Positions 1-227 of a stretch of 227 nucleotides of DNA are shown in pieces; positions within the stretch are counted from its first letter, which is position 1, and each line of letters begins with the position of its first letter. The notes beneath the pieces were generated by a model. The model saw only the letters and a list, made by a program, of their open reading frames with translations, did no database searches and had not been told where the DNA came from. The DNA lies in the NCBI RefSeq assembly GCF_003334335.1, contig NZ_QOWQ01000235.1; one strand, 5' to 3'. The position numbers and the translations under genes are program-made. This stretch comes from Escherichia coli. GTDB taxonomy: Bacteria > Pseudomonadota > Gammaproteobacteria > Enterobacterales > Enterobacteriaceae.

Positions 1-58
1 CTAGTGCGGCAATAATGTATGTTCCGATGCTGTAAATTTCCCCGGGTACCAGCCTTCC
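1..58 (-). other. Start of a non-collagenous C-terminal segment ([19 protein letters not shown]...) immediately after the last Gly-X-Y triplet; continues beyond window position 1.
   Basis: Gly periodicity is lost after G57 (next Gly are at residues 62 and 68). Composition switches to hydrophobic/aromatic residues (I, Y, L, A, V), and local GC falls from about 67% (positions 41-227) to about 40% (positions 1-40) by hand count. Confidence 0.55.
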
Positions 59-227
59 GGTTGGCCCTTGTGGTCCCTGTGGTCCGGGTTCACCTGTCGG
101 GCCCTGTGGACCTGTCGGGCCCTGTCTTCCTGTTTCTCCCTGCAAACCTCGTGGCCCCGTTTTACCCGCAGGACCTGCCGGACCAACCGGCCCCGGAACA
201 CCCTGTGCCCCCGCTGGTCCCCTTTCA
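1..227 (-). CDS. Partial CDS (both ends outside the window) for a collagen-like triple-helix repeat protein; reading frame has codons at window 226..224, 223..221, ... 4..2. No start or stop codon in the window.
   Basis: Hand translation of the reverse complement gives 75 codons with no stop. Gly occupies every third position for 19 consecutive positions (G3 to G57), giving 18 complete G-X-Y triplets, then periodicity ends at [19 protein letters not shown]. The truncated upstream codon ends in T, compatible with GGT (Gly), so the repeat probably continues beyond position 227. Such strict 3-residue Gly periodicity is not expected by chance. Confidence 0.8.
56..227 (-). repeat. Collagen-like Gly-X-Y coding repeat region (protein-level repeat, period 9 nt), probably continuing past the window edge at 227.
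   Basis: Triplets in order: [54 protein letters not shown], then a 19th Gly. X is Pro in 11 of 18 triplets; Y is Gln 6, Thr 5, Ala 3, Pro 2, Val 1, Arg 1. The + strand here is strongly C/T-rich, as expected for the antisense of GGN-CCN-NNN codons. Confidence 0.8.
93..125. repeat. Perfect 15-bp direct repeat (cctgtcgggccctgt on the + strand) at 93-107 and 111-125, separated by 3 bp (period 18 nt), lying inside the collagen-like CDS.
   Basis: Read directly from the sequence. On the coding (minus) strand the unit is cagggcccgacaggt, encoding Q-G-P-T-G twice within [12 protein letters not shown]. Confidence 0.85.

Follow-up and report, generated by a model that had tools for sequence, protein, structure and literature searches.

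A PhiR5_1-type side tail fibre of Escherichia coli prophages with a collagen-like stalk and a putative tip from a widespread phage fibre-tip family

The 227-nucleotide stretch of Escherichia coli DNA analysed here (the window, taken at its full length) belongs, in our reading, to the gene for the side tail fibre of an E. coli prophage that is lambdoid and of the PhiR5_1 type, and we give this explanation as a whole, including the mechanism proposed below, a probability of roughly 0.85. The object itself is an ordinary prophage side tail fibre, whose exact sequence is already present in GenBank and RefSeq and whose protein class was described in 2012. The new point is a modest one: the C-terminal 94 residues of the fibre, labelled as "hypothetical" or left unassigned in current annotation, can be assigned to a widespread fibre-tip family that has neither a Pfam model nor a solved structure.

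The fibre gene and the end of its collagen-like stalk

Six-frame translation identifies the minus strand as the coding strand, on which frame -1 is open throughout the window, with no stop. The features to which we refer, within the window and in the two phage loci used for comparison (L013, from PhiR5_1, and L012, P2-like), are the following.

Window 50..226, minus strand: C-terminal end of segment 2 of the collagen-like stalk (translation, Gly-X-Y run)
Window 1..55, minus strand: putative tip domain, first 18 codons plus one base (translation, family HMMs, AF2)
Window 1..195, minus strand: part of the window that belongs to the shared cassette (blastn of lambdoid against P2-like fibre gene)
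L013:3886-5457: PhiR5_1 fibre gene, 523-aa product, the full gene carrying the window
L013:5477-6055: tfa, encoding the 192-aa E. coli Tfa, next gene 3' of the fibre gene
L012:145-1749, minus strand: P2-like gpH-type fibre gene, with myovirus baseplate V/W/J/I homologues upstream

The stalk part of the window (50..226) encodes two residues (ER) and then 19 uninterrupted Gly-X-Y triplets (window 220..50), which in the 523-aa protein are residues 373-431. The final in-register glycine codon is at window 56..58, the next glycine (in VPG) being out of register, and after the stalk the window encodes 18 residues of the C-terminal domain, including what appears to be the conserved first core strand of the tip family (I-G-T-Y-I-I-A-A-L, within window 1..55). 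The sole open reading frame listed for the window (66 aa) lies in a different minus-strand frame, out of phase with the gene, and arises merely from the G+C richness of the repeat. Rfam gave no match on either strand of the window, and Tandem Repeats Finder reported only an 18-nt unit (two triplets) at window 92-126.

The whole protein is composed, in this order, of a phage_tail_N domain (PfN, PF08400; residues 1-134, E 2.5e-42), a first collagen segment (Pfam Collagen, residues 135-249, best E 3.9e-8), a Phage_fiber_2 repeat (Pf2, PF03406; residues 263-304, E 8.7e-16), a second collagen segment and a 94-aa C-terminal domain, and its best PHROG is phrog_366, a tail fibre (E 5e-123). Gly-X-Y runs occupy residues 136-192, 194-256 and 315-431. 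The first collagen segment (~120 residues, 136-256) is broken by GDPGGPPG, and the second (315-431) has 117 residues in 39 triplets, a run that is far beyond chance. The periodicity characteristic of collagen repeats (PF01391) therefore extends over 19 triplets in the window and 39 in the segment, and precomputed PF01391 hits exist on C-terminal fragments bearing this second segment. The C-terminal domain is taken here to begin with R430, directly behind the final in-register glycine (residues 430-523, 94 aa).

The original prediction, made from the window alone, placed the end of the triple-helix repeat at window 56..58, which the frame -1 translation bears out, and expected a separate C-terminal module to follow the stalk. 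The identical PhiR5_1 gene agrees with the latter: 94 residues follow the last in-register glycine, the frame runs 76 codons beyond the window edge instead of stopping just past it, and the 92 residues after L431 contain no Gly-X-Y run before the stop, so the junction is not a mere interruption of the repeat. The accompanying fall in GC is also real, from 0.67 (window 59-227) to 0.50 (window 1-58), and arises because of the Gly (GGN), Pro (CCN) and Ala (GCN) codons of the collagen segment. By codon position, GC1/GC2/GC3 are 0.87/0.79/0.43 in the collagen segment and 0.49/0.46/0.53 in the C-terminal domain. Since GC3 thus rises across the junction, the drop says nothing of foreign origin, and its interpretation as a mark of foreign DNA is ruled out by the amino-acid composition together with the rising GC3.

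Escherichia phage PhiR5_1 (PV340545.1, 46807-47033) and several E. coli chromosomes match the window at 100% identity, and five PhiR12 phages match it at 99%. An exact 35-mer from its non-repetitive part is present in 12 IMG/VR prophage contigs, and chromosomal prophage matches to the window were found in 36 of 5426 complete E. coli genomes. In PhiR5_1 the gene order is tail-tip protein J, Lom, the fibre gene and then, directly, a tail-fibre assembly protein gene, a place equivalent to that of lambda stf; among the heads that had been proposed for the stalk, the phage-fibre option is the one that this position, between J/lom and the assembly gene, bears out. RefSeq names the product "prophage tail fiber N-terminal domain-containing protein" or "tail fiber protein". 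Our literature search found no description of the PhiR5/PhiR12 phages, and an exact-sequence cluster look-up of the full proteins gave no match. An invertible segment (of the Mu G or e14 P type) was considered and dropped, no invertase being annotated downstream in PhiR5_1. Further 3' of tfa (L013:6851-7924), a 357-aa "putative adhesin/invasin" and a DinI-like gene are annotated, which look like moron-type cargo at a prophage end.

The tip domain, its relatives and the neighbouring assembly gene

The tip domain (residues 430-523) has no Pfam or NCBIfam hit, and PF06820 (PfC) in particular gives none even at E <= 10, with either the full protein or the isolated domain. A PDB sequence search with the tip gave no true match, a water-soluble chlorophyll protein (Kunitz) at E 0.11 being judged a chance match. 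A HMMER scan of 1.84 billion cluster representatives recovered only E. coli relatives (at least 91% identity) and repeat-inflated weak matches. The Ig-like repeat proteins P0018-P0023 were rejected as homologues, their similarity being weak, of the IKDxNGN hairpin-motif type and with repeat-inflated scores.

The relationship to other phages was found through phage-specific resources. The tip is matched by phrog_17472 (E 2.8e-4), specifically by the last 80 positions of this 872-position tail-protein profile, and a tblastn lead (E 0.2) pointed to Aeromonas phage 32 and the C-terminal end of its fibre at the gpH position, with which a pairwise BLASTP comparison of the tip gave E 1e-8 and 29% identity over 84 residues. 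Querying with the Aeromonas tip yielded the larger family, present in 253 phage records and 614 database proteins. The records are from phages of Pseudomonas (218, largely PB1-like) and Aeromonas (24), from those listed as Klebsiella (4) and Pbunalikevirus (4), and from single Hafnia, Stenotrophomonas and unnamed phages. Four motifs characterize the family: (A)VGTYxFA, PGxTVxGSxL, SGTWRCMG and, at the very end, TLWLRI(S/A)-COOH.

Several observations connect the E. coli tip with this family. A nine-member HMM built without E. coli sequences matches it end-to-end with 38.5 bits (E 4.6e-14), and a 118-member HMM gives it 29.2 bits, against a maximum of 8.0 bits among 2000 shuffles. In all 48 full-length matches the family tip is the exact C-terminus of the protein, with zero residues beyond it, and the E. 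coli fibre likewise has its stop codon right after ...LFQRAY. Motifs 1, 2 and 4 are present, and motif 3 is degenerate (GSWMVCN for GTWRCMG, keeping G, W and C). The identity between the E. coli tip and the family is 23-32%, and a 13-residue insertion, KANTDGIDGNLSS, is found only in the E. coli branch. Based on the profile comparisons, we regard the tip as a divergent member of a large tail-fibre tip family without a Pfam entry; Pfam matches neither the tip domain nor ten of its relatives. The only PDB sequence with a family tip is Pa193 gp47 (9B45, residues 878-962), in which gp47 is modelled for residues 1-340 only (PMC11456595). This excludes 9B45 as a solved homologue of the tip, and there is therefore no experimental structure of a family tip.

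Within E. coli the tip is strongly conserved (at least 87 of 94 residues identical), with the variation centred on a few positions, chiefly position 64 (N/K/R/I), whose loop, from this pattern, is a candidate receptor contact. This position corresponds to protein residue 493, outside the window and within the 13-residue insertion (L001-L013, P0001-P0017). Diversification of residue 64 by a DGR was dropped as an explanation, there being a single variable site and no reverse transcriptase annotated in the locus.

Additionally, a metagenomic sequence (ENA ERZ893790, L024:837-1349) encodes a complete 170-aa protein, P0073, with a short N-terminus, 22 Gly-X-Y triplets and a family tip of canonical form (GTWRCMG...TLWVRIS); the combination of collagen and tip therefore also occurs outside E. 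coli.

The gene that follows the fibre gene seems to be part of the same inheritance. In the nine other phages with a family tip that we compared, the next gene invariably (9/9) encodes a protein of 131-158 aa; four records annotate it as tail-fibre assembly, and Pfam and PHROG support this for most of them. Over its residues 6-62, the E. coli Tfa shows 40% identity with the chaperone of Aeromonas phage 32 (E 3e-15), and phrog_1141 and phrog_1795 match the N-domain of the E. coli Tfa and of three of the four other chaperones tested, the chaperone of Klebsiella phage Mexia having no match to either. Overall, the chaperone N-terminal domain is common to nine of the ten phages examined, E. coli included. 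The C-terminal halves differ: that of the E. coli Tfa is DUF4376 (PF14301; residues 72-182, E 7.9e-20), Pfam finding no Caudo_TAP (PF02413) in this protein, whereas those of the other chaperones are Caudo_TAP or Phage_tail_APC, with Caudo_TAP in four or five of the nine. This pattern fits the published modular model of Tfa, where the fibre tip is held by a variable N-domain and oligomerisation falls to the C-domain (North et al. 2019, as outlined in PMC9608196). Gene position, annotation and N-domain homology thus point to a probable chaperone role for the E. coli Tfa, and the best indirect argument for a distal tip assembled by a chaperone is that distant phages appear to have inherited tip and chaperone N-domain together. 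The DUF4376 of the E. coli protein may provide fibre chaperones with another kind of oligomerisation module.

Copies of the tip and exchange within the collagen repeats

Tip DNA is carried by 28 of 5426 complete E. coli genomes, at 86 places (median three and up to eight per genome), all copies being 95.8% identical or more; these 5426 genomes yielded no DNA relatives at a greater distance. In one IMG genome (643348545; L007-L010) the tip is present in four prophages, and this multi-copy state recalls the multi-copy EPclA genes of O157:H7.

Three N-terminal architectures carry the E. coli tip: the PfN type described above (493-523 aa), a PfN-like variant with three collagen runs (about 640-700 aa) and a myovirus fibre of the P2 gpH type, whose single collagen run has 20 triplets. 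Loci in which the tip is on one of the other fibre types (gpH-type or three-run PfN variant) are L012 and L004, and L001, L003 and L006. A blastn comparison of the PhiR5_1 (L013) and P2-like (L012) fibre genes matched nt 1148-1714 of the former to 1193-1749 of the latter with 94.9% identity. The shared block starts inside the collagen repeat (L013 gene nt 1148, about window 195) and takes in about 16 triplets at the end of the collagen run, then the tip and the spacer between the genes, and reaches ~20 nt into tfa, its 3' limit being the end of the P2-like locus sequence compared. Among the copies, the second collagen segment varies between 30 and 50 triplets, and the 18-residue sequence of the junction is invariant. 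Since the edge of the block lies inside the repeat and the junction does not vary, the junction between collagen and tip is not itself the recombination boundary; the alignments place the exchanges, as far as sequence comparison can locate them, within the collagen repeats.

Three sequences that could suggest a breakpoint at the junction were set aside. In L014 (JAPMDB010000075.1; P0004), an apparent mosaic breakpoint at LVPGE was rejected, the upstream 76 nt being the terminal inverted repeat of an insertion sequence inside which the contig ends. The element (L014:1-95) is of the IS629/IS1203 type (IS3 family), its inverted repeat being located at the junction, at a point equivalent to window ~53, where ...CGGTTCA is followed by GCTGGTACCCGGGG; the target resembles CCCCGGG in the IS end. 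This insertion truncates a fibre gene beside P2-like tail genes. The other two, P0010 and P0011 (from ENA contigs of 2641 and 641 nt, respectively), were set aside as possible assembly chimeras. In their open reading frames, unrelated N-termini (response-regulator-like in P0010, the N-terminal 55 residues of Tfa in P0011) meet the tip at one point, ...GE followed by IYSIG, where Tfa and the tip have GGGGAAATT in common, and they may be either assembly chimeras or real microhomology recombinants.

A more speculative proposal, which we hold as a tentative one and consider less probable than not in its entirety, would join these observations. The unnamed tip family would have a new fold, with each member co-evolving with its own Tfa N-domain, and the collagen repeats of E. 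coli would serve as in-frame recombination adaptors, which would let a cassette formed by the last collagen triplets, the tip and tfa move between the fibres of lambdoid siphoviruses and P2-like myoviruses, and become homogenised among up to eight prophages per genome.

Proposed assembly, alternative readings and known systems

Experimental data are available for the related EPclA, a trimeric, dumbbell-shaped collagen triple-helix protein whose C-terminal domain trimerises and nucleates refolding (PMC3368898). The triple helix was demonstrated by CD, AUC and EM for EPclA and EPclB, the only two proteins characterised by Ghosh et al. (PMC3368898), and by analogy we would expect triple-helix formation in the PhiR5_1-type fibre as well. 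In the mechanism that we propose, three chains would form a trimer, the PfN end would fix the fibre to the tail, and two collagen triple helices of ~33 nm each (at 0.286 nm/residue) would make up a slender stalk, with the Pf2 linker as its hinge. The downstream Tfa would bind the tip via its N-domain and set the three C-termini in register, after which the triple helix would zip up from the C-terminal end; the distal C-terminal tip, perhaps with bound Tfa, would then touch the host receptor. The hydrophobic run seen in the window would be the first buried beta-strand of the tip. The trimer, stalk and Tfa steps were derived from the EPclA experiments and the Tfa literature, so that trimer formation, chaperone dependence, folding direction and receptor binding are all put forward by analogy. 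Lambda PaPa is viable without functional side fibres, and the PhiR5_1-type fibre may therefore be dispensable on laboratory hosts.

Structure prediction is relevant both to this mechanism and to several of its rivals. An AF2 monomer model from a shallow alignment was all-beta, with the hydrophobic run as a strand, and was unusable (mean pLDDT 36.9). A second AF2 run, on a linker-joined triple copy of the tip with a 38-row family alignment, reached a mean pLDDT of 54.1 and a pTM of 0.35 (64-75 in the core blocks, <50 in the insertion loop), predicting the same secondary structure of six strands in all three copies, with strand 1 at tip residues 13-18 (YIIAAL, block pLDDT 64-74). The model gave no confident trimer packing. 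Foldseek of the low-confidence tip model against the PDB returned nothing at E <= 0.001, and against BFVD single copies superpose on predicted fibre tips with 3-4 A rmsd and a probability of ~1.0, these matches being phage fibre tips of Aeromonas, Pseudomonas, Aquamicrobium, Lentibacter and Celeribacter (roseophages included).

These models bear on the 12-residue hydrophobic run, for which the original prediction had left a choice between a buried strand and the start of a membrane-associated or transmembrane segment. The run aligns with the most conserved N-terminal motif of the family (VGTYxFA) and is a strand in both AF2 runs, so that the first half of that choice is favoured, and we consider with moderate confidence that it is the first buried beta-strand of the tip. 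A membrane segment we regard as wholly improbable: the run is locally hydrophobic, but it is broken by Ser, Gly, Thr and Tyr, and nowhere in the protein does the Kyte-Doolittle mean exceed 1.18 (residues 436-454), short of the usual transmembrane cut-off of 1.6 over 19 residues. Moreover, the strand motif with which it aligns is conserved among several hundred soluble fibre tips, and the protein is a virion fibre encoded between J/lom and tfa. The analogy with a C1q/TNF-like jelly-roll trimer (PF00386), as in Bacillus BclA, did not survive either and seems very improbable, its support being a general precedent, such as the fibre of cyanophage Pam3, in which a TNF-like domain at the C-terminus is paired with a chaperone (PMC9608196). 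The 94 residues with about six predicted strands are too small for the 10-strand, ~130-residue C1q jelly roll, and neither Pfam (residues 430-523 and the ten relatives), the PDB sequence search nor the Foldseek search of the PDB at the threshold given above returned such a head. Slightly less probable still is that the C-terminal domain is an auto-cleaved intramolecular chaperone of the Peptidase_S74 type, gone from the mature fibre. C-terminal chaperone domains of that kind do occur in phage fibres and spikes (PMC9608196), but here there is no Peptidase_S74 or other Pfam hit, a separate gene for an intermolecular chaperone comes directly next, and the members of the tip family are terminal tips, each followed by a chaperone gene.

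The rival that deserves most weight, although we think it unlikely, holds that the tip serves chiefly as a plug for registration and trimerisation, from which the collagen helix nucleates, with the receptor recognised by Tfa remaining attached to the end of the fibre, as it does in phage Mu. EPclA offers a precedent in its PfC domain, which trimerises and nucleates triple-helix refolding (PMC3368898), and, according to PMC9608196, the Tfa proteins of Mu and Ur-lambda stay in mature virions and Tfa proteins bind host surfaces (North 2019; North & Davidson 2021). The strong conservation of the tip core in E. coli would also suit a plug. Nevertheless, the concentration of the variation at a few sites, chiefly position 64 in the E. 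coli-specific loop, suits a contact surface, and the nucleation and receptor-binding roles are not mutually exclusive.

Comparison with characterised systems places the fibre closest to EPclC (Ghosh et al. 2012, PLoS One 7:e37872, PMC3368898), which is also a prophage gene at the side tail-fibre position. Both have the order PfN, Col, Pf2, Col and a C-terminal region that is not PfC, both are devoid of a long PCoil domain, and both have a GxPGGPxG interruption in the first collagen segment (GDPGGPPG here). The lengths are also similar: ECED1_1681 has 493 aa and ECED1_2081 has 520 (collagen segments of 118 + 117 residues), versus 493-523 aa and about 118 + 117 here. The fibre thus matches the EPclC class at the level of architecture, its C-terminal region being a possible counterpart of the "PfC2" of Ghosh et al.; by record label, no E. 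coli ED1a record is among the 28 complete genomes that carry the tip.

The lambda Stf/Tfa pair has in common with our system the place after J and lom, a PF08400 N-terminus, a PF03406 repeat and a downstream assembly gene, and differs in that the shaft is here collagen-like, the tip is of another family and the Tfa C-domain is DUF4376, not Caudo_TAP. The tips of Pbunavirus (PB1-like), Aeromonas and other P2-like phages (Pa193 gp47 878-962, phrog_17472) are a homologous terminal domain of ~80-95 aa, with common motifs (GTYxxA, PGxxVxGSxL, G(T/S)WxC and L(W/F)xRxx-COOH) and a chaperone gene next to them. They are carried on a beaded or HxH-containing shaft, whereas the E. coli tip is on a collagen stalk and has the 13-residue insertion, the degenerate GTWRCMG and another chaperone C-domain. 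The resemblance to Mu gpS/Tfa and Pam3 gp24/gp25 would be one of function, a chaperone N-domain gripping the tip and a C-domain oligomerising (PMC9608196), since no sequence similarity to the solved Mu or Pam3 fibre-chaperone complexes was detected. Bacillus BclA is alike in having a Gly-X-Y stalk capped by a C-terminal globular domain that forms trimers (as it presumably does here), and different in that its head is C1q-like and belongs to an exosporium filament, in contrast with a non-C1q head on a phage virion fibre.

For annotation, the value of these results lies in tying the tip to a widespread family and to a cognate chaperone domain, which is useful for host-range prediction and for fibre-swapping designs. 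If the tentative proposal of a new fold and of cassette exchange between fibres is true, the family of new-fold receptor-binding tips would include the fibres of therapeutic PB1-like Pseudomonas phages.
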